A DNA stretch of 64,000 bases from an uncultured Planctomycetales bacterium. Lineage in GTDB: Bacteria; Omnitrophota; Gorgyraeia; Zapsychrales; JANLHA01. The stretch covers positions 310,358-374,357 of the forward strand of contig CAZAXH010000001.1 in assembly GCA_964489065.1 (NCBI GenBank), in the 5' to 3' direction. The notes under the pieces were generated by a model, which worked only from the letters and a program-made list of their open reading frames with translations, searched no databases and was not told the DNA's origin. The translations under genes and the position numbers were made by a program. This document shows, one piece after another, positions 28,069 through 40,964 of the stretch (position 1 is its first letter; the number at the start of each line of letters is the position of its first letter).

Positions 28069-28812
28069 TCACAGCGTCTTCTGCCACCAGGCCCGCATCG
28101 CCGCCACGGTTTCCTTTTTATTCTCTTTGATCAGATATTCCGCATGCGGGCCGTTCTTGACCAGCAGCATTTTCTTAGAAGCGTTTGTTTTATCAAACAA
28201 AACCTGCGCGTGCCAGGGTTTAATAAGCCAGTCAGCGTCCCCGTGTATATAAAAGACCGGAATAACAATCTTGGAGACGACCTGCACCGGCTTTTCTTTC
28301 TTAAGCCAGAACGGCCCCGGGCGTACCCCTTTCCCGATCCGCCCGTCGCCGATGAGATTGTAAACAATATCCGTTTCCACGTTTAACTCCCAAAAACGGT
28401 AGTCTATTTTTTCAAATTCCGTCGGCGCGCTAACCGAAATCAGGCTATGAATGAGTTCCGTCCTGGAGGCGACAATCAGACTAATGGCGCCGCCCAAGGA
28501 AAAACCGATCACCCCCAGCCGGTCATAGTCCCGCGCTGCCTGCCGGAGAACCGCTTCCAAGTCCATAGGCTCTTTGGTCGTCCAGTAAAAGAGGCCCCCG
28601 CTCTTCCCGTGTCCGCGGAAATCCATGATGATCACATCATACTGGTCGTGATGAGCCCGGCCCAGGCTTTTAAGCAAAACCGCTTCCTTGCTGTTAAAAA
28701 AACCGTGCGCAATGATCACCGCCTTTTTATGCCCGAAGCGGTAATGGTCATAATGGACATCCTGTCCGTCGGCAGCGCGCACAACGCAATGCAAAGGCTG
28801 GGGGAGTGTCAT
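28069..28812 (-). CDS. alpha/beta hydrolase
   Basis: GHGKSGG and the nucleophile elbow GFSLGG are present. The start was set at the ATG at 28812, overlapping the upstream stop by ATGA (translational coupling). Confidence 0.75.
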   Translation of the reverse strand: MTLPQPLHCVVRAADGQDVHYDHYRFGHKKAVIIAHGFFNSKEAVLLKSLGRAHHDQYDVIIMDFRGHGKSGGLFYWTTKEPMDLEAVLRQAARDYDRLGVIGFSLGGAISLIVASRTELIHSLISVSAPTEFEKIDYRFWELNVETDIVYNLIGDGRIGKGVRPGPFWLKKEKPVQVVSKIVIPVFYIHGDADWLIKPWHAQVLFDKTNASKKMLLVKNGPHAEYLIKENKKETVAAMRAWWQKTL

Positions 28813-31800
28813 AGGGTTCCCTCCTCCTGTGTCAATGACAAAGCCAAACGCTTGACCGCTCCTAAATCCAATTTCCCGGAACCTAACAAAGGAAAATCCT
28901 CCACACGATAAAACGCGGTCCGGGCAGGGATCCACAGCTTAGGAACGTCCGAAGCGTTGAGCTCCTCCAGGACACGATCCGCATCCAACGCAGCCCGGCA
29001 CAGCACAATCAGGCGCTCGCCCTTCTTAGAATCCGGAACAGCGGTCACGACGCAAACCGGTTCCTCCGCTTTTAAAGCCATATGAATCCTCTCTTCCACT
29101 TTAATGTGGGGGACCATCTCCCCCCCTATCTTGCTAAACCGGCTCAGGCGGTCTGTGATCGTAATAAACCCGTCTTCGTCAAGCTTGGCGACGTCACCGG
29201 TCATATACCAACCATCCCGGATAACCGCGGCCGTCTTTTCCGGCTGATTCAGATATCCTCTCATGACATTCGCCCCCTTAACCAAGAGGAGCCCTTCCTC
29301 ATCCGGTCCCTTGCCCTGCCCGGTTTCCTGGTCCACGATTTTCACCGCAACCCCCGGCAAAGGCATGCCGATGGTTCCTGGTTTGTGAGCTTTTTGAACC
29401 GGGCCTTTTTCCTCATAGTCCGGCAGATTCAGGGAAACAATCGGGGACAATTCTGTGCACCCGTACCCTTCCATCGGTTCGAGGTTAAATTTTTCACGAA
29501 AAGCCTGCGCGATACTCTGTCTTAATTTTTCCGCCCCCACGACCACCAACCTCAAACTCTTAAAATCGTCTGCCTCACAGCGACGGGTATACGCGCTCAA
29601 AAACGTTGGCGTACACATCATAATCGTGGCCCGATACCGGCGGGCCAAGTCCCCGACCACTTTGGCGTCCAGAGGATTGGCGTGATAGGTGACACCCATC
29701 CCGCAAACCAGAGGAAACCAGAGGGCCGCCGTAAAGCCAAAAGAATGGAAAAACGGCAAAATGCCAAGCACGGTGTCCCGGCTGTCAACATTAAAAACCT
29801 GATAAAGCCCCTCGAGATTGCTTGTGATATTCGCGTGAGTCAGCATCACCCCTTTAGGGTCACCCGTGCTGCCGCTGGTAAACATGATTGTGGCCAAATC
29901 ATCGATCGAACGGTTTCTTCTACGGCCGAAAATCATCTGAAACGAAATCCAACGGGGATAAATAATGGACTTAAAGACCGCCAGCGCTTTATGTTTCAAC
30001 CTGATGGAAGACAGCACGTCCTCGATAAACAGCGGCTCCGCGGGGATCTCAACACCGGTCTTCTCGACAAATTTCCGTGAGGTGATAACGGTCCGCATGC
30101 CGCATTGCTGAACGATAGACCGCAACGCCTCTCCAGAGCTTGTATAATTCATGTTAACCGGGGCTTTTCTCAGCATGGACACGGCGATATTCACCAGGGC
30201 CGCCCCAACCGAAGGAGGAATCAAAATACCAACAAACTTCTCCTTTTGAAACCGGGATTTTAATCTGTCAGACAGGGAAACAGCCGCCACCAGGGCCTGG
30301 CCGTAAGACAAAACCCGTCCTCCGGAATCAGACATACAAAACTGATCCGGATGATACCGGGCTTCGCGCCAGAAGGCTTCCGGCAATGTCCAACGCTCCT
30401 CAAGCCGGTAAGGAAACGCCTCGGCCCCCAACTCTCTCACCCGATTACGCACTTCAAAGGCTGTTGTCTTGGCCGGCAACGGCTTCCCAAACGTCACCGT
30501 CAGAGGATAAGGGATAACTTTGGGAATCTTGTAATAATAACGACCTCCCTCAAAACTAAAAATACTACCCCAGATGCGGTCCAGATGCACGGGCACGATC
30601 GTGCAGTCAATGCCGCTCATGATGTATTCCAGGCCTTTATTAAACTTGAGGATATTGCCGATCCGGGTCAAACGGCCTTCCGCGAAAATGCACACCAGTT
30701 CCCCGTTTTCCACTGCTTCCCGGGCCAAACGCAAAGACTTCAATTGTTCTTTAGGCCCGTCGGCGTTTGAGATCGGGATGCTCTTAGCCAGGCGGAAAAG
30801 CGGGTTAAAAATTTTTGTCTTATAGACATCCCGGCCAATCATAAACCGAACAGGGCGCTGAATAGAAACCAGAATGACCAGAGCATCCACCAGCGAAACA
30901 TGATTGCTCACCAACAACGCCCCGCCTTGCGAAGGCACATTCTCTTTATTAACCACGCGTATCCTGTAAATCGTATGCGTAAGAAGCCAAACCACAAAAC
31001 GGACCAGGGCATAAGGAAGCAGCCGACAGATATAAACCGCGCCGCAGGCCGTCAAAAGTCCCGCGACCACAAAAATATGAGCGGCATTAAAATGAAGGAT
31101 ATCCCGAAAAACATAAATCGCCAAAGATCCCACAAGGATGGCGGAGAAAGACAAGAAATTGTTTACCGCCAAAAACTGTCCCCTCCGGTCTTTGGGGCTT
31201 TCCTGTTGAATCAGGGTGTTCAACGGGATCATGTAAAACCCGCTGGACAGCCCCAAACAAAGCAGCGTCACCGCGACGGCGACATAAGAATGGTAAACAA
31301 ACCCGAGTTTAAGGGAAAAAACAACTAGGCCGATTGCGCCTAAAGGAACCAGCCCCAGTTCCACTTTTTCATCAGAAAACTTTCCGGCGAGTATACTGCC
31401 GGCTCCAATCCCGGCGGCGAGGATGATCAAAAGGATGCTTGTCGCCAGATGATCAATCTGCATAATTTTTCTGGAATAAAGCAGGATATTCAGATGGAAC
31501 AACGAGCCCAGGAACCCAAAAAACAAAAGCCCCAGGATGGAAAGATAAATCGTGCGGTTGGTCCTGATCAATTTCAGATTAACGGAAACGTCCTTCCACA
31601 TGTTCCATTCAAATGCCCGCCGGGCCCCGGAAGCCGGCACCGGGCAAACAAAGAAGCTAGCCGCAAGGCCGATCACGGAACAGGCCATGAAAACCCAGGA
31701 GGCCTGGTACACATCCGGTTGCGTCACGTAAACAAGATATCCTCCCCCGGCCTGGCCCAAAATAATGGCGGCGTACGTCCATAATTGAATAAGCCCGTTA

Positions 31801-32222
31801 CCTTCGGAAAGCTTTTCTTCTTCCAAAATTTCAGGGAGGATCCCGTATTTAGACGGGCTGAATAAGGCGCTCTGCAACCCCATGAAAAACAGGACGGTCA
31901 GCATCAACGCAAACCCGCCATCTTTCAACGCAAAAAAGCCAAGCACCATAATGAACAGCTCTAAAGCCTTCGTCGCCACGATGACCTGTTTTTTGCTGAA
32001 ACGATCCGCCCAATACCCCGCATAAGTCGAGAACAGCAAAAAGGGCAAAACAAAAATGGCCCCGGAAAGGGACAGATATAAAGACCCGCCTTGCTGTTGA
32101 GCGAAATGGTCCACGGCAATAAAAGCGATGACAAGTTTGAAAGCATTATCATTAAACGCGCCTAAAAACTGAGTCAGGATCAAAGCATAAAAGCCCTGTT
32201 TACGATAGCCTTGTTTCATCAT
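28809..32222 (-). CDS. triple-fusion lysophospholipid transporter (LplT, MFS) / 2-acyl-glycerophosphoethanolamine acyltransferase / acyl-ACP synthetase (Aas)
   Basis: 1137 aa. Residues 1-400 form a 12-TM MFS domain. This is followed by a PlsC-type acyltransferase motif HVSLVDALVIL (Hx4D), then an AMP-binding domain (TSGSTGDPKGVMLTH, ...GYGCTE...). Confidence 0.8.
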   Translation of the reverse strand: MMKQGYRKQGFYALILTQFLGAFNDNAFKLVIAFIAVDHFAQQQGGSLYLSLSGAIFVLPFLLFSTYAGYWADRFSKKQVIVATKALELFIMVLGFFALKDGGFALMLTVLFFMGLQSALFSPSKYGILPEILEEEKLSEGNGLIQLWTYAAIILGQAGGGYLVYVTQPDVYQASWVFMACSVIGLAASFFVCPVPASGARRAFEWNMWKDVSVNLKLIRTNRTIYLSILGLLFFGFLGSLFHLNILLYSRKIMQIDHLATSILLIILAAGIGAGSILAGKFSDEKVELGLVPLGAIGLVVFSLKLGFVYHSYVAVAVTLLCLGLSSGFYMIPLNTLIQQESPKDRRGQFLAVNNFLSFSAILVGSLAIYVFRDILHFNAAHIFVVAGLLTACGAVYICRLLPYALVRFVVWLLTHTIYRIRVVNKENVPSQGGALLVSNHVSLVDALVILVSIQRPVRFMIGRDVYKTKIFNPLFRLAKSIPISNADGPKEQLKSLRLAREAVENGELVCIFAEGRLTRIGNILKFNKGLEYIMSGIDCTIVPVHLDRIWGSIFSFEGGRYYYKIPKVIPYPLTVTFGKPLPAKTTAFEVRNRVRELGAEAFPYRLEERWTLPEAFWREARYHPDQFCMSDSGGRVLSYGQALVAAVSLSDRLKSRFQKEKFVGILIPPSVGAALVNIAVSMLRKAPVNMNYTSSGEALRSIVQQCGMRTVITSRKFVEKTGVEIPAEPLFIEDVLSSIRLKHKALAVFKSIIYPRWISFQMIFGRRRNRSIDDLATIMFTSGSTGDPKGVMLTHANITSNLEGLYQVFNVDSRDTVLGILPFFHSFGFTAALWFPLVCGMGVTYHANPLDAKVVGDLARRYRATIMMCTPTFLSAYTRRCEADDFKSLRLVVVGAEKLRQSIAQAFREKFNLEPMEGYGCTELSPIVSLNLPDYEEKGPVQKAHKPGTIGMPLPGVAVKIVDQETGQGKGPDEEGLLLVKGANVMRGYLNQPEKTAAVIRDGWYMTGDVAKLDEDGFITITDRLSRFSKIGGEMVPHIKVEERIHMALKAEEPVCVVTAVPDSKKGERLIVLCRAALDADRVLEELNASDVPKLWIPARTAFYRVEDFPLLGSGKLDLGAVKRLALSLTQEEGTL

Positions 32223-33104: not shown

Positions 33105-33632
33105 TTAAACAGACGAGGACATCCCTTGTTCCCTTTTCTGCCGTCTCTTCAGCCGGGGCCAATATTTCTTATCCAGGATATACCCCACGCAGCCTTCGGA
33201 TCCGCAATAGCACCGGTGATCCTCATATTCATCAAAATCATACCCATAATTATAAGTAAGCTCTTCCCCTGGCTGAATATTTTTAATAGAAATAATCCAA
33301 ATATGCCCCCGGATATTCTCGGCCTCACAGTTGGGGTCGCACGCGTGATTAATGAACCGGGCCGTATTATAAGGGACATCCCCGTCCAAATCCTGTTTTT
33401 TGTTTAAATCAAAGATATAAACAGCGCCGTTTTTTTTATTCTTTTTATGCCGGCCCAGGGGAATTTCCGCCCGTTGTTGAGCTTCCGCTTTGGATATCTT
33501 TTCCCCCACATACTCAATAATTTTTGTCCCGGCTGGAATCGAAATCTTGGCGTAGACCCCCTTATTATGAATTTTTGAAGCTTTAACAATAACATAGGGA
33601 CTCGTTGTCTTTTCCGGTTGCTGACACGGCAT
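33105..33632 (-). CDS. SET-domain protein-lysine N-methyltransferase (bacterial SET with post-SET Cys cluster)
   Basis: NHACDPNCEAENIRG...ELTYNYGYDF...CYCGSEGCVGYI shows the SET signature motifs (NHxCxPN, ELxxxY) and the post-SET CxCx4C. A GGAGG SD lies upstream of the ATG. Confidence 0.75.
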   Translation of the reverse strand: MPCQQPEKTTSPYVIVKASKIHNKGVYAKISIPAGTKIIEYVGEKISKAEAQQRAEIPLGRHKKNKKNGAVYIFDLNKKQDLDGDVPYNTARFINHACDPNCEAENIRGHIWIISIKNIQPGEELTYNYGYDFDEYEDHRCYCGSEGCVGYILDKKYWPRLKRRQKREQGMSSSV

Positions 33633-34180: not shown

Positions 34181-34222
34181 TCATTCACGGGCCTGCCCGC
34201 GGCCTTCGGCGAAAGCGAATAA
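34080..34222. repeat. Copy Y of the ~150-nt palindromic element family
   Basis: Aligns with X and Z: ccttgggcgtggg / gcgaatatccctaaagcagaaggacttattaacctctcgcattcattcacgggcctgcccgcggcc / gaaagcgaataa. It overlaps the 5' part of the HisKA ORF. Confidence 0.6.
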
Positions 34223-35423: not shown

Positions 35424-36431
35424 TCAATCCAGGGGGTTGTGGCGTAAGGCTCCCGCCGCCACTCCTGGTTCGGTGCGCACGACATAGAAGCCGGTCCCCC
35501 ATTCAAAACCGGCCACGCGGCTCAGCTGCGGCACGATCTCGATATGCCAGTGATAACTCTGATTTTCCTGATAATTCACCGGCGGTACATGCAGATAAAA
35601 ATTATAAGACGGATCATCCAGCGTTTTCTTCATCCTCTTTAAGACCTCCCGCAAAGTAGCCGCCAGCTGGGTGCGGTCATGATCCGACAAATAGCAGAAA
35701 TCCGAAGTATGCTCCGTGGGCAGAATCCACGTTTCAAAAGGATACCTCGGCACATAAGGGCAAAAAGAAATAAACGCGTCGTTCTCTACGACAATCCGCT
35801 CCTTCTCCTGCCGTTCCTGGTCTATAATATCGCAATAAATGCACCGACCGCGGAATTTAAAATAATCCAAAGAGCCTTCGAGTTCTTCAAGGACATCGCG
35901 GGGCACAAGCGGCAGGGCGATGATCTGGCTGTGCGCATGTTCAATGGACGTTCCGGCCGACTGCCCGTAATTTTTAAAGACCATGATATACTTGAACCGC
36001 CTGTCCTTAGCCAGGCTGACGGACCGGTTTTGAGCGAGCCGTATAACGTCCACAATTTCGTTGACGGACAAATCCGCCAAATCACGGTCATGATCCGGCG
36101 TTTCGATCAGGACTTCATGCGCGCCGATGCCGTTAGAAACATCATAGAGACCATACCCCCGTTTATCCAGCTGTCCTTCGATGCGTAAAGCGGGAAATTT
36201 ATTTGAAACAACGCGAGCCGTCCAACCGGGTTGATTCGGAGCCGCCCCGGGATGACGATTCGCATCGACTTCCGGTGGCGTCAGACTCTCCCGGCCCGGG
36301 CAAAATTGACAGATGGCTTTGTGCTTGCGCTCATGGGTTTCCTGATCATAACGGTCGGCCCCCCAAGACTCCTCTTTATCCGCCACGATCGCCCAACGGC
36401 CGGTAATAGGATCTCTCCGAACTTCACTCAT
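35424..36431 (-). CDS. galactose-1-phosphate uridylyltransferase-family (GalT, HIT superfamily) nucleotidyltransferase, canonical paralog
   Basis: Zn motif CQFCPG, active-site SIEHAHSQI (HxHxQ with the nucleophilic His) and a second-half HWHIEI. The start overlaps the upstream paralog's stop by ATGA. Confidence 0.75.
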   Translation of the reverse strand: MSEVRRDPITGRWAIVADKEESWGADRYDQETHERKHKAICQFCPGRESLTPPEVDANRHPGAAPNQPGWTARVVSNKFPALRIEGQLDKRGYGLYDVSNGIGAHEVLIETPDHDRDLADLSVNEIVDVIRLAQNRSVSLAKDRRFKYIMVFKNYGQSAGTSIEHAHSQIIALPLVPRDVLEELEGSLDYFKFRGRCIYCDIIDQERQEKERIVVENDAFISFCPYVPRYPFETWILPTEHTSDFCYLSDHDRTQLAATLREVLKRMKKTLDDPSYNFYLHVPPVNYQENQSYHWHIEIVPQLSRVAGFEWGTGFYVVRTEPGVAAGALRHNPLD

Positions 36432-37450
36432 GGCAGTTCCACCTCCCGCAGAAATTCCGCGGTGTCTTCAGGGGGAATCGAGCAGATATGAAACCCCGAC
36501 CCCTTCTCAAACCCCGCCACACGCGTTAAACGCGGCATCACCTCAATATGCCAATGATAATCCTCTTCAATCGTCGGCCAACGGGCCCCCCGATCCTGGC
36601 TCCGGAAAGGAGCGGTATGAAGCACATAATTGTACGACGGGTCATCCAGGCCCACTTTGAGCCGGGTCAGAACCTCTTTTAAAATCTTCGCCAAATCCCC
36701 TTCCTTCCCGGAAACCCCCTTGACAAAATCACATTGATGTTCCTTGGGCAGCAAACATATCTCAAATGAAAAACGCGGAGCATACGGGGCGATGGCGATA
36801 AAATGCTCTGATTCCGTCACCATACGGGTTCTGTCCATGCTTTCCTGCCGGATTAAATCGCAGAACAGACACCGGTCATGATAATCAAAATATTTTTTGG
36901 CCCCGGCCATCTTTTCTTTGACCGCCAGCGGATTAACAGCTGAAGCAATGATCTGGGAGCGGGAATGTCCGATATTGCGGCTTCCGGCCGCCCAGCCATA
37001 ATTTTTATAAGCGATCACATAAAGAAAATTTCTATTCTTACTTAATTCCTGCATACGGGTTCTATAAGCCTGAAACACGGCGCTGATCTGCGCTTCGCTC
37101 AAATCGGCCATATTGGCGATATGTTCCGGCGTTTCAATGACGACTTCATGCACCCCGTAATCATTGATAACATCATAAAGCCCGTGGCCCCTGCGTTTAA
37201 ACTGCGGCGCCATTTTTAACAGCGGGGTTCCGCTGGGGGTGACCCGGACTTTCCAGGGGCTGGCCACGCGAGGGTCATCGTTGGGAATGGCGTATATTTC
37301 CGGCTCCTGGTTATGACAAAAAGGGCAGGGCGCATTATCATCGTCCATGGCCTCGCGCTGCGGGTCAATAATCGTGCCCGGACGCCTAGCCCGTTCCGTT
37401 GATATAATGACCCACCGCCCGACAACCGGATCTTTCCGTAACTCTGGCAT
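36428..37450 (-). CDS. GalT-family paralog with Arg in place of the nucleophilic histidine (HSRSQ instead of HxHxQ)
   Basis: It aligns with the downstream paralog throughout (CPFCHN Zn motif, YHWHIEV). At the catalytic position NIGHSRSQII replaces SIEHAHSQII. Confidence 0.7.
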   Translation of the reverse strand: MPELRKDPVVGRWVIISTERARRPGTIIDPQREAMDDDNAPCPFCHNQEPEIYAIPNDDPRVASPWKVRVTPSGTPLLKMAPQFKRRGHGLYDVINDYGVHEVVIETPEHIANMADLSEAQISAVFQAYRTRMQELSKNRNFLYVIAYKNYGWAAGSRNIGHSRSQIIASAVNPLAVKEKMAGAKKYFDYHDRCLFCDLIRQESMDRTRMVTESEHFIAIAPYAPRFSFEICLLPKEHQCDFVKGVSGKEGDLAKILKEVLTRLKVGLDDPSYNYVLHTAPFRSQDRGARWPTIEEDYHWHIEVMPRLTRVAGFEKGSGFHICSIPPEDTAEFLREVELP

Positions 37451-37657: not shown

Positions 37658-40600
37658 TTATGAAGCAGCCTGCTTTCTTTTCATCAACTCTTCCCGCTCC
37701 GCTTTAATTTTCTCCGCCATCTGGAAGGGGACTTCCGAATAAAAATTGGGCTCCATCGAAAACGACGCGCGCCCCTGCGTCAGGGAACGCAGGGCATTCG
37801 CGTAATTAAACATCTCTGACAAGGGGACATCGCAAAGGGCGGTTTTCTGTTTCCCCTGGACCCCCATATTGACGATCCTGGCCCGCCGGCTGTTTAAATC
37901 TCCAATGACCGCGCCAATAAATTCTTCCGGGACCGAACATTCCAGCTTCATAACCGGCTCGAGAAAAATCGATTTCCCGCGGCGCAGCCCTTCTTTCAAC
38001 GCGGTTTTGGCGGCCAGCTGAAAGGCGATGTCGCTGGAGTCTACCTCATGGAAGGACCCGTCAACCAAAGTGACCGTAAAATCCGTCACCGGGTAACCGG
38101 CCAGAATGCCGCTGGCTGCCCCCGCCCGGATGCCTTTCTCAATGGAAGGAATATATTCCCGGGGAATCACGCCGCCTTTAATTTTGTCAACAAACTTAAT
38201 GCCGTCCCCGGGCTTCTCACTGGGTGCAATATCAATCACGCAGTGTCCGTACTGCCCCCGGCCGCCGGTCTGGGAAATAAATTTCCCTTCCACATGGTCC
38301 GCTCTTTCCTTAATAGTTTCACGGTAGGCCACCTGGGGCCGCCCGATATTGGTTTCCAAATTATGCTCGCGTTTCATCCGGTCAATGATAATTTCCAAAT
38401 GCAGTTCCCCCATCCCGGACAACAGGGTCTGGCCGGTTTCATGGTCATAAGACACCCGCAGGGAAGGATCCTCATCCAGGAACTTCTTTAAAATAAACCC
38501 CATTTTGTCCTGGTCCGCCTTGGTCTGCGGTTCAATCGCCATAGAAATAACCGGCTCCGGAGCCTGGATGCTTTCCAATAGAATCGGATTGTCTTCGTCA
38601 CAAATCGTATTCCCGGATTTGGCTTCTTTCAAGCCGACCAGGGCGACGATCTCGCCGGCGCCCGCGCGGGATATGATTTCCTGTTTGTTGGCATGCATCA
38701 TCACGATTTTAGCCACCCGTTCCCTTTTCTCAAGGGAAGAATTGTAGATCGTCTTCCCCGATTCGATGACGCCGGAATAAACCCGCGTGTAAAACAATTT
38801 ACCCACATAAGGATCCGAGGCGATTTTAAAAATCAGGGCGCTCAAAGGCTCTTGCACGGACGGATGCCGCTGAACGGGGTCCCCGGTCCTAGGATGCGTT
38901 CCGGCCACCGGGGGTACATCAAGGGGAGAGGGGAGGTAATCAACGATCGCGTCCAAAACTTTCTGCACGCCGCGGTTTCGCAAAGCGGTCCCCACCAGGG
39001 CCGGGAAAAAGGCGTTTTTCACAACGCCCCGCCGGATGGCCGGGATGATGTCTTCCGCTGGGATATCCTGCTCCGACAGCAGCTTTTCCATAATAATATC
39101 GTCGCATGTGGACAGTCTTTCCAGAAGAGTCCGGCGGACCTCCTTCGCTTTTTCCTGCAATGCGGACGGGATGTCCTGCTCTTCAAATTTCATGCCTTCC
39201 TCATCTAAATAATGGATATATTTCATGCGGACCACATCCACAATGCCTTTAAACTGATCCTCTGCCCCGTCCGGAAGCTGAACAGCGGCCACGTTGGCTC
39301 CGATACGGTCCTCAATCTGCTGCAGAACACGGAAAAAATCCGCCCCCATACGGTCAATCTTATTAATAAAGAAAATCCTCGGCACATGGTACCGGTCCGC
39401 CTGCCGCCAGACGGTTTCGGTCTGAGACTGAACCCCGCTCGTGGCGCAAAGCACGACCACCGCCCCATCCAGGACCTTCAGCGACCGCTCGACTTCCACG
39501 GTAAAATCCACGTGTCCCGGAGTATCAATAACATTAATTTTCTTCCCCTTCCAGAAACAGGTCGTGTTAGCTGCCGTAATCGTGATCCCTCTCTCCTGTT
39601 CCTGTTCCATCCAATCCATCGTCGCGTTGCCTTCGTCGACCGTCCCCATCTTGTGAATAACGCCGGTATAATAAAGCACCCGTTCGGTCGTCGTGGTCTT
39701 GCCGGCGTCAATATGGGCGATAATCCCGATATTCCGTACTTCAGCGAGATCCTCATCCCCACCCGAGCTGACGGCGGCCGGTTCGCCTTCAGCCAGCGTT
39801 TCCTGCCCGGCAGGCTGCCCGTCACCTGTGGGCTCCTGGAGGCTAGCCGCGGCCGGCCCTGCCACCTCAGCGGCAAATTCCGGTTCCTGAAGGACCTCAA
39901 CCGGGGGCACTAATAATTCCTCCTCCCACATCCGGATATCCACGCCAAGCTGTTTCCGGACAAATAAAATTGCATCCTCACCTTTCTCCTTAATACGCGC
40001 TATGAGATTCAAGAGCTTCTCGCTTTTGTCCGCCGCCAGCTTCTTTCTCTCCCGGATCTTCTCTTCCACCTCCGCGGCTTTTTTTTGTGCCGTCTGCACG
40101 TCCAACCGACAGTCTTTGATTCCGGTCTCGGCGTCACGAAAAGCTCTTTCCCTCTGTTTAATTTTCTCTTCCAAAAGATTCACCCGTTCCGAACACTCCC
40201 GGGCCTCCTGTTCCTTTTTTTGGAGACTATCCTGAAGAGCCAGCCGCTCTTCTTTGGCCCGGCTGATCCCTTCATTCAAATGGTTGCGAATATGGTCAAA
40301 TTCCTGAATATAACGGCGTTCGCCGCGCAACGCCGCGCTGGTATTCTTAATGATCCTTTTCTTGTCCGTTATCAACGCCTTCAAATGATGATGCTGCTCG
40401 GTACACTCGCGCAATTTCCGCTCCAAATCATCATGCAGAATCGATAATTCCAGGGCCCGGTTAATGTCCTCCGTGGCCACGCCCTCATATTCAGACAACA
40501 CGTCCGCCTCCCCCTGAGAAGGGGCGCCTTTCCCTGATTTTACAGACGCCTCTTCCGTGCGGATTCCCACCCGGGTCAACAATTCGGACGTCGTAACCGG

Positions 40601-40726
40601 CTGATTGTAAACCGGCGCTGCGCGTTTGCGGATAAACTGTTCGACCTTTTTCTCTTTCCACATGAACCAGGCGATCGTTCCCAGTCCAACAACAATGCAC
40701 ATTGTTCCTATAAAAAAAATAATCAT
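37658..40726 (-). CDS. EF-G-like translational GTPase fused to an N-terminal transmembrane helix and ~300-aa coiled-coil region
   Basis: 1022-aa uninterrupted ORF from an ATG. Residues 1-23 are hydrophobic ([23 protein letters not shown]). Residues ~90-270 are E/K/R/L-rich heptad-like coiled coil, followed by an acidic Pro/Ala linker. From residue ~325 on there is a complete EF-G: the G domain [22 protein letters not shown] / DTPGHVDF / NKIDR, domains II-V, and the domain IV loop [10 protein letters not shown]. Codon usage in the extension is genome-typical. Confidence 0.8.
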
Positions 40727-40755
40727 AATAAAAAAATTTATTGGTTATCAAAAAT

Positions 40756-40915
40756 GGAACCCATGCCCATGGGCGTGATACTTACGAACACTTCGCTTCA
40801 TGGAATGATTTGACGTCTTAATATGCGTGCGGACATCCCCAAAGCAGAAGCCCCCTTGTTAACCTTTCGCTTTTATCCACGGGCATGCCCGTGGTCTTAA
40901 AGGCGGATAAAAATA
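40756..40915. repeat. Copy X of the ~150-nt palindromic element family, upstream of the EF-G fusion gene
   Basis: Contains GCCCATGGGC (40765-40774) and the perfect 18-bp palindrome CCACGGGCATGCCCGTGG (40877-40894), together with the blocks shared with Y and Z. It lies 30-190 nt upstream of the 40726 start codon. Confidence 0.6.
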
Positions 40916-40964
40916 AAAGAGGTGGTTTCTGGAAGAAACAAGCCGGCCTGACGAAACCGGGCCG

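Follow-up and report, generated by a model that had tools for sequence, protein, structure and literature searches.

Elongation factor G (EF-G) is among the most conserved and best-studied proteins and is regarded as a cytosolic factor that diffuses freely and that, through its concentration and diffusion, contributes to setting elongation rates. What, then, is to be made of a gene that places EF-G behind a transmembrane (TM) helix, a long coiled coil and an acidic linker? Such a gene lies in a stretch of 64,000 nucleotides (the window; assembly GCA_964489065.1, contig CAZAXH010000001.1, positions 310,358 to 374,357) from an uncultured bacterium of the phylum Omnitrophota, where positions 37658..40726 of the minus strand form one reading frame of 1022 codons plus a stop, a gene supported by open reading frame (ORF) calling, domain matches and full-length homologues. 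A sequence-only reading of the locus had described a single uninterrupted ORF that begins with a hydrophobic helix, and the ORF call agrees. We propose that the gene encodes a second, catalytically canonical EF-G that is permanently anchored to the inner membrane on its cytoplasmic side, a reading to which we give a probability of roughly one half. What was already known here is EF-G itself; what is new is the conserved joining of a canonical EF-G to a membrane tether that derives from a phylum-specific module.

The enzyme occupies residues 326-1022 (37661..39751, minus strand) and is a canonical EF-G with G (including G′), II, III, IV and V domains, as judged from Pfam, the NCBIfam equivalog model TIGR00484, alignment to Protein Data Bank (PDB) structures and its motifs. 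All Pfam matches exceed their cutoffs (GTP_EFTU at 329-600, EF-G domain II at 627-710, domain III at 723-795, domain IV at 797-917 and the C-terminal domain at 921-1006), and TIGR00484 scores 992.7 bits against a cutoff of 659.4, aligning residues 326-1012 with profile positions 6-690 of 691. The signature motifs AHIDAGKT (337), RGITI (379), DTPGH (401), NKID (455), GGRGQYG (821) and HEVDSS (893) are present, and the P-loop, switch I, DTPGH, NKxD and both domain IV tip loops are intact in all 31 long forms; the earlier description of a full EF-G with G1-G4 motifs, domains II-V and a domain IV tip loop was thus correct. Alignment to the EF-Gs of T. thermophilus and E. coli runs end to end at 826 bits, with no large gaps relative to 1dar or 4wpo, and where a long and a canonical paralog share a contig, the two are about as close to the solved structures as each other, the long one (P0004) scoring 821-822 bits against T. 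thermophilus and E. coli EF-G and the canonical one (P0028) 848 and 795. When 31 long-form cores were aligned with 84 canonical cores, not one column carried a fixed difference between the two sets, and columns at least 90% conserved numbered 381 in the long forms versus 355 in the canonical ones. The linker meets EF-G at its very beginning: where canonical Omnitrophota EF-G starts M-x3-5-[PI]LK[DN][VL]-RNIGIIAH, the fusions have linker-L[KA][DE]x-RNIGIIAH. Because the motifs are intact and no core difference is fixed, the novelty resides in the tether and not in the enzyme, and the absence of fixed long-versus-short substitutions leaves a subfunctionalised core without apparent support.

Two other identities were considered for the core and rejected. 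Both EF-G2/EFG-II models score below cutoff (NF009377, 531 versus 890; NF058620, the Bacteroidota EF-G2 model, 469 versus 1000), as do those for tetracycline ribosomal protection (NF012153, 402 versus 775; subfamily models, 232-277 versus 900-1425), and the ribosome-protection role that had been suggested for the protein falls with the latter score.

The extension in front of this core is composed as follows, all on the minus strand. It opens with a TM helix at residues 1-23 (40658..40726), identified from Kyte-Doolittle hydropathy, an AlphaFold2 model and counts of lysine and arginine (K/R), and continues with a juxtamembrane motif at residues 43-55 (40562..40600), found in the family alignment. 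A continuous heptad coiled coil at residues 85-247 (39986..40474) is supported by AlphaFold2, a heptad test, ungapped alignment and the ratio of nonsynonymous to synonymous substitution rates (dN/dS). Two short helices with a clade-specific WEEELL motif follow the stalk in the model at residues 248-275 (39902..39985), and an acidic, disordered linker rich in Glu, Ala, Pro and Gly, with a net charge of -11, occupies residues 276-325 (39752..39901), where the AlphaFold2 confidence score (pLDDT) falls below 50. Run with the family alignment as input, AlphaFold2 predicts a TM helix at 2-36 (pLDDT ~90), a short helix at 46-52 on the SELLTR motif, disorder at 56-83, one unbroken helix at 85-247 (pLDDT 93-98), short helices within 250-272 and a disordered tail at 278-330. 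Pfam returned no significant match on residues 1-325, and comparison of the extension and of the module described below with Pfam, NCBIfam and PDB profiles returned only generic coiled-coil matches below cutoff (keratin, Spc110, SMC, Rad50, EzrA).

The 19-residue hydropathy mean of the TM segment is 2.41 in the window protein, and 26 of 30 long forms have such a segment at the N-terminus (means of 2.1-3.2); the remaining four look like 5′-truncated gene calls. The juxtamembrane consensus, [VI][TS]x3-5LLxRxG[IL], is present in 25 of 29 fused forms. In an alignment of 25 extensions that includes the window sequence (A1), window residues ~90-245 (columns 200-355) are free of gaps although the other sequences are only 16-28% identical to the window protein; the motifs R+EF[ND]xI+ and LEEKI+K recur along the coil (the latter as LLEEKIK in the window), and E186 is invariant. 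Hydrophobicity power in the family alignment peaks at a period of 3.5, with one register over all 155 columns, 59% hydrophobic residues at heptad positions a and d versus 10% elsewhere, and an observed power that none of 500 shuffles reached; the window protein tested by itself gave the same outcome. The coiled coil spans some 163 residues (85-247) and not the ~300 first estimated from the sequence, the remainder of the extension being TM helix, disordered juxtamembrane segment and acidic linker; at 0.15 nm per residue, a straight helix of 163 residues would be ~23-24 nm long. The linker is Glu/Ala/Pro-rich throughout the family, with a median net charge of -18.5, and extends 56-197 residues from the end of the stalk.

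Is the extension translated, or does the gene call start too early? A word-indexed search with the extension alone recovered one near-identical fragment (labelled Candidatus Omnitrophota), and an exhaustive profile search was needed for the others. With the whole protein as query, about 30 of the best 120 matches (29 long forms besides the window protein) are 989-1185 amino acids (aa) long, with ~100% query coverage and 53-85% identity, and come from independent JGI, ENA, NCBI and Logan assemblies, including a 3.35-Mb contig; ordinary Omnitrophota EF-Gs of ~700 aa align only to the C-terminal 68% of the query, at 67-74% identity. The long-form gene is under purifying selection throughout: in codon alignments with the two closest relatives, dN/dS is 0.13-0.18 over the whole extension (0.07-0.10 in the coiled coil, ~0.2 in the TM helix and ~0.3 in the linker) and 0.05-0.06 over the EF-G part. 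Codon usage in the extension is native, as had been noted from the sequence, with a GC content at third codon positions of 0.61 versus 0.59 +/- 0.02 in neighbouring genes and a correlation in relative synonymous codon usage of r = 0.81. In ~30 long forms no stop codon separates the extension from EF-G, and the relatives share no conserved in-frame internal start ahead of the EF-G part. The two candidate starts in the window both lie in the segment behind the stalk. At Met266, which serves as the start in one NCBI record, relatives have Ala, Leu or Thr. GTG codon 273 (39908-39910) has AGGAGG (39919-39924) 8 nt upstream, so that the earlier statement that no internal start is backed by a Shine-Dalgarno (SD) sequence does not hold for the window; this AGGAGG is coding sequence of the conserved WEEE motif, and GTG273 is missing from relatives that are 96%, 85%, 81% and 80% identical. 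Since the extension is conserved and under selection and the in-frame starts are not conserved, we reject an over-extended ORF, in agreement with the initial judgement that the architecture is real; the ~30 homologues and the gap-free coil point the same way.

Public annotation hides this architecture. NCBI records of the same cluster (at least 90% identity) that JGI, ENA and Logan calls place at ~1024 aa use internal starts and give products of 695 aa (P0301), 745 aa (P0044), 757 aa (P0006) and 758 aa (P0302), named "elongation factor G" or "GTP-binding protein". Such trimming conceals the architecture in nr and is likely one reason for its absence from the literature.

How does the long form relate to the ordinary EF-G of the same cells? 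In a relative, contig ERZ21869516:contig_29 (305,891 bp) carries a 700-aa EF-G in the order rplA-rplJ-rplL-rpoB-rpoC-rpsG-fusA-tuf-rpsJ-rplC and, ~90 kb from that fusA, a 1037-aa long form that is 80% identical to the window protein and lies in the same context as in the window (priA-fmt-X-GalT-GalT-gapA). The presence of a str-operon fusA and a long form on one contig confirms the suspicion that the window gene is a second EF-G paralog. Two further genomes probably carry both forms: a canonical EF-G at least 90% identical to the contig_29 copy lies on a 3,345,229-bp contig and the long form P0003 on a 3,345,229-bp chromosome, and the members of another canonical/long pair are both on contigs of 144,532 bp. 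In a neighbour-joining tree of EF-G cores the long forms make up one clade (86 of 100 bootstraps), which also takes in two records whose starts were called inside the linker. Mean core identity is 74% within the long forms, 73% within the canonical forms and 70% between them, and the single clade together with these values indicates one old duplication after which both copies would have evolved equally slowly. The fusion is probably not universal and probably restricted to part of the Omnitrophota: the 3,360,633-bp complete Omnitrophota chromosome OY759724.1 carries a stand-alone gene of the kind described next (L020), the canonical EF-G P0033 lies on a 3,360,633-bp contig, and no long EF-G from OY759724.1 appeared among the top matches.

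The tether itself is borrowed, since the module also occurs as a protein of its own. An exhaustive search of 1.84 billion representatives with the A1 profile matched 385 proteins at E <= 1e-3, 221 at E <= 1e-10 and 88 at E <= 1e-30, and none of 148 new representatives of 180-700 aa among the matches listed has a G domain. Scores with this profile, to which the window sequence contributes, are 307 bits for the window ORF and 120-260 bits for independent stand-alone members. These are complete proteins that begin with a TM helix, the motif [VI]TPxxLLxRLGL (the juxtamembrane motif is common to both families), sometimes GTA[SA]LRLD, and a coiled-coil core (...NRKEFNKVKDILEKELKD.KDK...KRVNQLEEKIKKLE...), and continue with a long disordered region rich in Pro, Glu, Ser and Thr, the motif (E/D)2-3-F-L-K-L-x-P-D-I-L and a charged tail. 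AlphaFold2 predicts for one member a TM helix at 2-28, a short helix at 45-51, one helix at 95-252 and then disorder. The stand-alone proteins thus share with the window protein the TM helix, the juxtamembrane motif, a 155-column gap-free coil in the same register and acidic, Pro-rich disorder; they differ in ending in a short motif and a charged tail where the window protein ends in EF-G. The FLKLxPDIL motif, ~40 residues from the C-terminus, is found in 78 of 158 stand-alone and in 0 of 29 fused forms, and in the window protein, which lacks it, EF-G occupies that end. Profile matches and predicted structure together identify the tether as homologous to the N-terminal three-quarters of a stand-alone Omnitrophota family whose C-terminal motif is here replaced by EF-G. 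No Pfam or NCBIfam model describes this family, on which both give sub-threshold generic coiled-coil matches only; its source names are "hypothetical protein" or "myosin heavy subunit", and its labelled members are all Omnitrophota/Omnitrophica or carry a generic "uncultured Planctomycetales" label for metagenome-assembled genomes. The members gathered here are P0122-P0289 and genes at L007 10001-11233, L008 10001-11029, L009 10001-11182, L004 11651-13657 and L032 5356-7182.

In three genomes the stand-alone gene occupies the same slot, in the order valS, QRPTase, x, an Rce1-like gene, xanthine-dehydrogenase subunits, a small ORF, NTP_transf_3 (on the opposite strand), the module gene, cyclophilin PPIase, XdhC and PNPOx. 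The slot beside the cyclophilin PPIase falls within a xanthine-dehydrogenase/XdhC/MobA-like block. Fused and stand-alone genes are found together in one genome, as direct neighbours in at least two lineages: L004 has the same block with a long EF-G inserted directly upstream of NTP_transf_3 and a 661-aa stand-alone paralog, and in L032 the stand-alone gene follows the fused gene by 83 bp on the same strand. The coiled-coil cores of these adjacent pairs are just 19-25% identical, by which a recent local duplication of the module is rejected; with cores this divergent, the fusion is, on sequence grounds, old, and it may have arisen locally in the distant past. A pattern scan of contigs (A2) found 3 fused and 48 stand-alone genes, counts that are biased towards stand-alone members and are not a frequency estimate. 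Mean core identity is 30% among fused and 43% among stand-alone forms, with exact length and heptad register equal, so that in the fused coils the constraint seems to fall on length and not on the surface. That the stalk stays free of gaps in both families at 16-30% identity suggests that it works as a spacer or ruler; the juxtamembrane motif, itself conserved, may dock the protein to a membrane component.

On which side of the membrane would the EF-G lie? No charged residue precedes the TM helix of the window protein, and KEKK...RKR follows it; across the family, K/R residues average 0.18 before the helix, where the median length of the N-terminal tail is 0, and 4.45 in the 15 residues after it. 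By the positive-inside rule, scarce K/R before and abundant K/R after the helix predict an N-out/C-in anchor with EF-G in the cytoplasm, and no other topology would suit a strongly constrained enzyme that needs GTP and ribosomes. A cleavable signal peptide was considered and rejected, there being no positively charged n-region.

Set beside known systems, the window protein is familiar at one end only. With canonical EF-G (fusA, TIGR00484) it shares the five-domain core, the G motifs, the catalytic His and the tip loops, at 70-74% identity to the Omnitrophota copy, and it differs in being a second copy with a 325-aa extension of TM helix, coil and linker; a typical fusA product is soluble, ~700 aa long and encoded within rpsL-rpsG-fusA-tuf, and the window gene encodes 1022 aa with a TM helix and lies between fmt and GalT. 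Duplicated EF-Gs retained beside another copy are known, as EF-G2/EFG-II, spdEFG1/2 and mitochondrial EF-G1/EF-G2 (PMC3150367), but in those paralogs the core has diverged, functions have been split or lost and there is no membrane anchor, whereas here the core is undiverged and a tether has been added. Surveys of EF-G and translational GTPases (PMC4342817, PMC3150367, PMC12172202) mention no transmembrane, coiled-coil or N-terminal extension, and a membrane-anchored EF-G was not described in the literature searched, which included the Omnitrophota genome papers (PMC10066038; bioRxiv 10.64898/2026.06.07.730766).

Partial analogues can be found elsewhere. The best PDB match by score is an engineered L9-EF-G chimera (4wpo and the related 4wqf, 4wqu and 4wqy), which likewise has a protein, ribosomal protein L9, fused N-terminally to EF-G and aligns over chain residues ~72-754, but is an artificial crystallography construct without a membrane anchor. 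That such chimeras are in the PDB means that EF-G can fold and crystallise with a protein fused to its N-terminus; we take these entries to be 70S ribosome complexes. FtsY is a translation-associated GTPase held at the membrane by an acidic disordered N-terminal A domain and, in some lineages, by an N-terminal TM helix. It is an analogue only in the way it works, having an SRP54-type NG domain, a targeting role and no coiled-coil stalk, and no SRP54 domain is among the Pfam matches of the window protein. In layout, the ribosomal stalk (bacterial L7/L12, archaeal and eukaryotic P-stalk) may be compared as well: on a helical base that oligomerises it carries a hinge, flexible and rich in Ala, Glu and Pro, with a tip that binds translational GTPases, and the whole provides a local factor pool (PMC7768734). 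The stand-alone Omnitrophota protein similarly comprises base, hinge and terminal short motif, and the fusion ends the hinge in EF-G; the base is here a membrane anchor with a ~23-nm coiled coil rather than a ribosome-bound dimerisation domain, and there is no sequence similarity.

In the mechanism that we favour, the protein would sit N-out/C-in in the membrane, the coiled coil would make it at least dimeric, and the EF-G heads would be projected ~25-45 nm from the membrane on an acidic flexible leash. So tethered, EF-G would perform ordinary GTP-dependent translocation and recycling with ribosome recycling factor on ribosomes near the membrane, and the result would be a non-diffusible, membrane-proximal factor pool, for example for ribosomes engaged in co-translational insertion. 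Among the very long proteins of Omnitrophota, 94% bear TM helices or signal peptides (bioRxiv 10.64898/2026.06.07.730766), and with giant proteins of this kind a supply of elongation factor close to the membrane would be useful. The sequence-only reading had already called the protein probably membrane-tethered and, if so, functionally novel; we infer the same, and both the canonical core and the K/R statistics strengthen that view.

Several observations weigh against this proposal. The topology is drawn from K/R counts and from the requirement of EF-G for GTP and ribosomes, and some members carry only a modest net positive charge behind that helix. The coil has mostly L/I/V at position a and mostly Leu at d, a pattern that resembles a parallel dimer and is not decisive for the oligomeric state. 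Omnitrophota cells measure ~0.2 um (PMC10066038), and in such a cell a tether reaching 25-45 nm would extend to most of the cytoplasm, so that localisation may not be the selected property. The full-length product is predicted from the gene sequence, and in this organism, unlike its relatives, initiation at GTG273 behind the AGGAGG could give a soluble protein of ~750 aa. The window does not contain the canonical fusA of its genome, whose existence is expected from the relatives. The module phylogeny does not resolve a single origin of the fused modules, and no conserved operon partner is seen beyond close relatives, which leaves genomic context without a functional hint.

Three other accounts of the gene are contradicted by the features tested. 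A non-translocase specialist, of the EF-G2/EFG-II type, with an spdEFG-type split of translocation and recycling, or resembling Tet(M)/Tet(O), would suit a second copy outside the str operon, and known EF-G duplicates are often subfunctionalised (PMC3150367); we nevertheless regard it as very unlikely for a protein that passes the EF-G equivalog model, falls below the EF-G2, Bacteroidota EF-G2 and tet_protect cutoffs, shares 70-74% identity with canonical Omnitrophota EF-G, from which no fixed difference separates it, and has canonical domain IV tip loops. Still more improbable is an annotation artefact, in which the true product would be an EF-G of ~700-760 aa with an internal start and the upstream 265-325 codons would be untranslated or a remnant. 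The NCBI records of 695, 745, 757 and 758 aa for near-identical genes, the GTG273 with AGGAGG 8 nt upstream and the lack of a clear SD ahead of ATG1 would fit it; the extension's dN/dS of 0.13-0.18, a TM helix, motifs and heptad register kept down to 16% identity, zero stop codons in ~30 long forms, internal starts that are unconserved even at 96% identity and the existence of the same module as an independent, clearly coding protein family do not. The least probable is an N-in/C-out topology in which coil and linker would span the periplasm and EF-G would moonlight outside the cytoplasm. The order of TM helix, long helix, Pro/Glu-rich spacer and C-terminal domain does resemble TolA and TonB, but the K/R residues come after the helix and not before it, there is no signal-peptide n-region, no TolA or TonB model matched in the profile scans, and strongly constrained GTP-binding and ribosome-contact motifs would be pointless without GTP or ribosomes.

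Two further accounts accept the tether and dispute its purpose. It may be a retention device that keeps a fraction of EF-G on the cell's own membrane as a stored or partition-proof pool, perhaps to be released by cleavage in the linker when translation is boosted (e.g., on host attachment), perhaps preventing loss of the factor from an ultra-small, possibly host-connected cell. A long, disordered, poorly conserved linker of 56-197 residues suits a protease-accessible leash, a reach of 25-45 nm across most of a 0.2-um cell (PMC10066038) makes spatial restriction weak and so favours retention, and V. archaeovorus is reported to increase its ribosome content on host attachment (PMC10066038); but the linker shows neither a protease site nor a conserved cleavage motif, and a fixed-length coil with a conserved juxtamembrane motif suggests defined geometry or docking rather than mere storage. 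We consider this account unlikely, though not far-fetched. Somewhat more doubtful is a scaffold in which EF-G serves mainly as a ribosome-binding handle that brings ribosomes to a membrane site defined by the coil, possibly in hetero-oligomers with the stand-alone protein. The module is common to a stand-alone family with a C-terminal recruiting motif in the place of EF-G, fused and stand-alone genes are adjacent in two lineages, and coil cores identical in length and register make hetero-oligomers conceivable. Yet every GTPase and domain IV residue is kept, and constraint on the core matches that on canonical EF-G, the pattern of an enzyme that turns over and binds ribosomes transiently; a pure handle would tolerate catalytic loss. 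By analogy with the ribosomal stalk, and as a speculation that we would back a shade less again, the fused EF-G and the stand-alone proteins might be two versions of one Omnitrophota-specific membrane "factor stalk" that concentrates translation factors or ribosomes at the membrane, with a partner recruited by the short motif in one version and EF-G hard-wired in the other, possibly in mixed coil oligomers, and that sustains fast, processive elongation by membrane-docked ribosomes making giant membrane-anchored proteins.

If EF-G is indeed tethered, a conserved tethered lineage beside a soluble copy would be a natural experiment in the spatial control of bacterial elongation and recycling. It makes testable whether EF-G can work while tethered and whether factor supply is limiting for membrane-bound ribosomes, and raises the further question of how translation is organised in ultra-small, possibly predatory cells that make enormous membrane proteins. 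The comparison also brings to light a phylum-wide family of uncharacterised membrane proteins, whose C-terminal motif may be a clue to the partner replaced by EF-G, and a systematic blind spot of annotation, in that homology-guided start selection trims the extension in NCBI records.

Upstream of the gene, a 238-nt spacer (40727..40964, minus strand) separates it from fmt, compared with ~55-75 nt in two relatives (L001, L003), and has an A/T-rich leader in which no clear SD precedes the ATG. Within the spacer is a perfect 18-bp palindrome, CCACGGGCA / TGCCCGTGG, at 40877..40894, which is 72 nt past the fmt stop and 151 nt ahead of the ATG and is absent from the shorter spacers of the two relatives; a terminator, a repetitive extragenic palindromic (REP)-like element or an operator are possible identities. 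The sequence-only reading had seen a palindromic element family in the promoter region: the palindrome is there, but "family" and "promoter" are weakly supported, since the only other copies in the window are two degenerate ones (30588-30603 and 34186-34201, the latter just downstream of gapA; 0.27 expected by chance). A terminator-like hairpin, GCCCATGGGCATGGGT, with a T-run lies at 40759-40774, ~30 nt upstream of the EF-G ATG, and a sigma-70-like match, TTGATA-18-TATGAT, lies at 40722-40751, its -10 element overlapping the ATG. Rfam returned no family match on the upstream region, and nothing ties these features to the finding of a long-form EF-G.

The gene lies outside the str operon, isolated between fmt and the GalT pair as had been noted from the sequence: priA and fmt lie upstream, two GalT-like genes and gapA lie downstream, and no other EF-G gene was found within the window. 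The flanking genes are 71-91% identical to Pfam-labelled genes in the syntenic relative L003; this synteny is maintained only in close relatives, and distant long forms are in unrelated neighbourhoods. The GalT-like genes form a tandem (GalP_UDP_transf/DUF4931/DUF4921; 35424-37450) whose members are 40% identical to each other and overlap by 4 nt (36428-36431), and the pair, adjoining gapA, is kept in relatives. Farther downstream, synteny and size in L001 and L003 assign 33105-33632 to a bacterial SET-domain protein of 175 aa and 28809-32222 to a 1137-aa fusion of MFS transporter, acyltransferase and AMP-binding domains, of the lysophospholipid transporter/acyl-ACP synthetase type.

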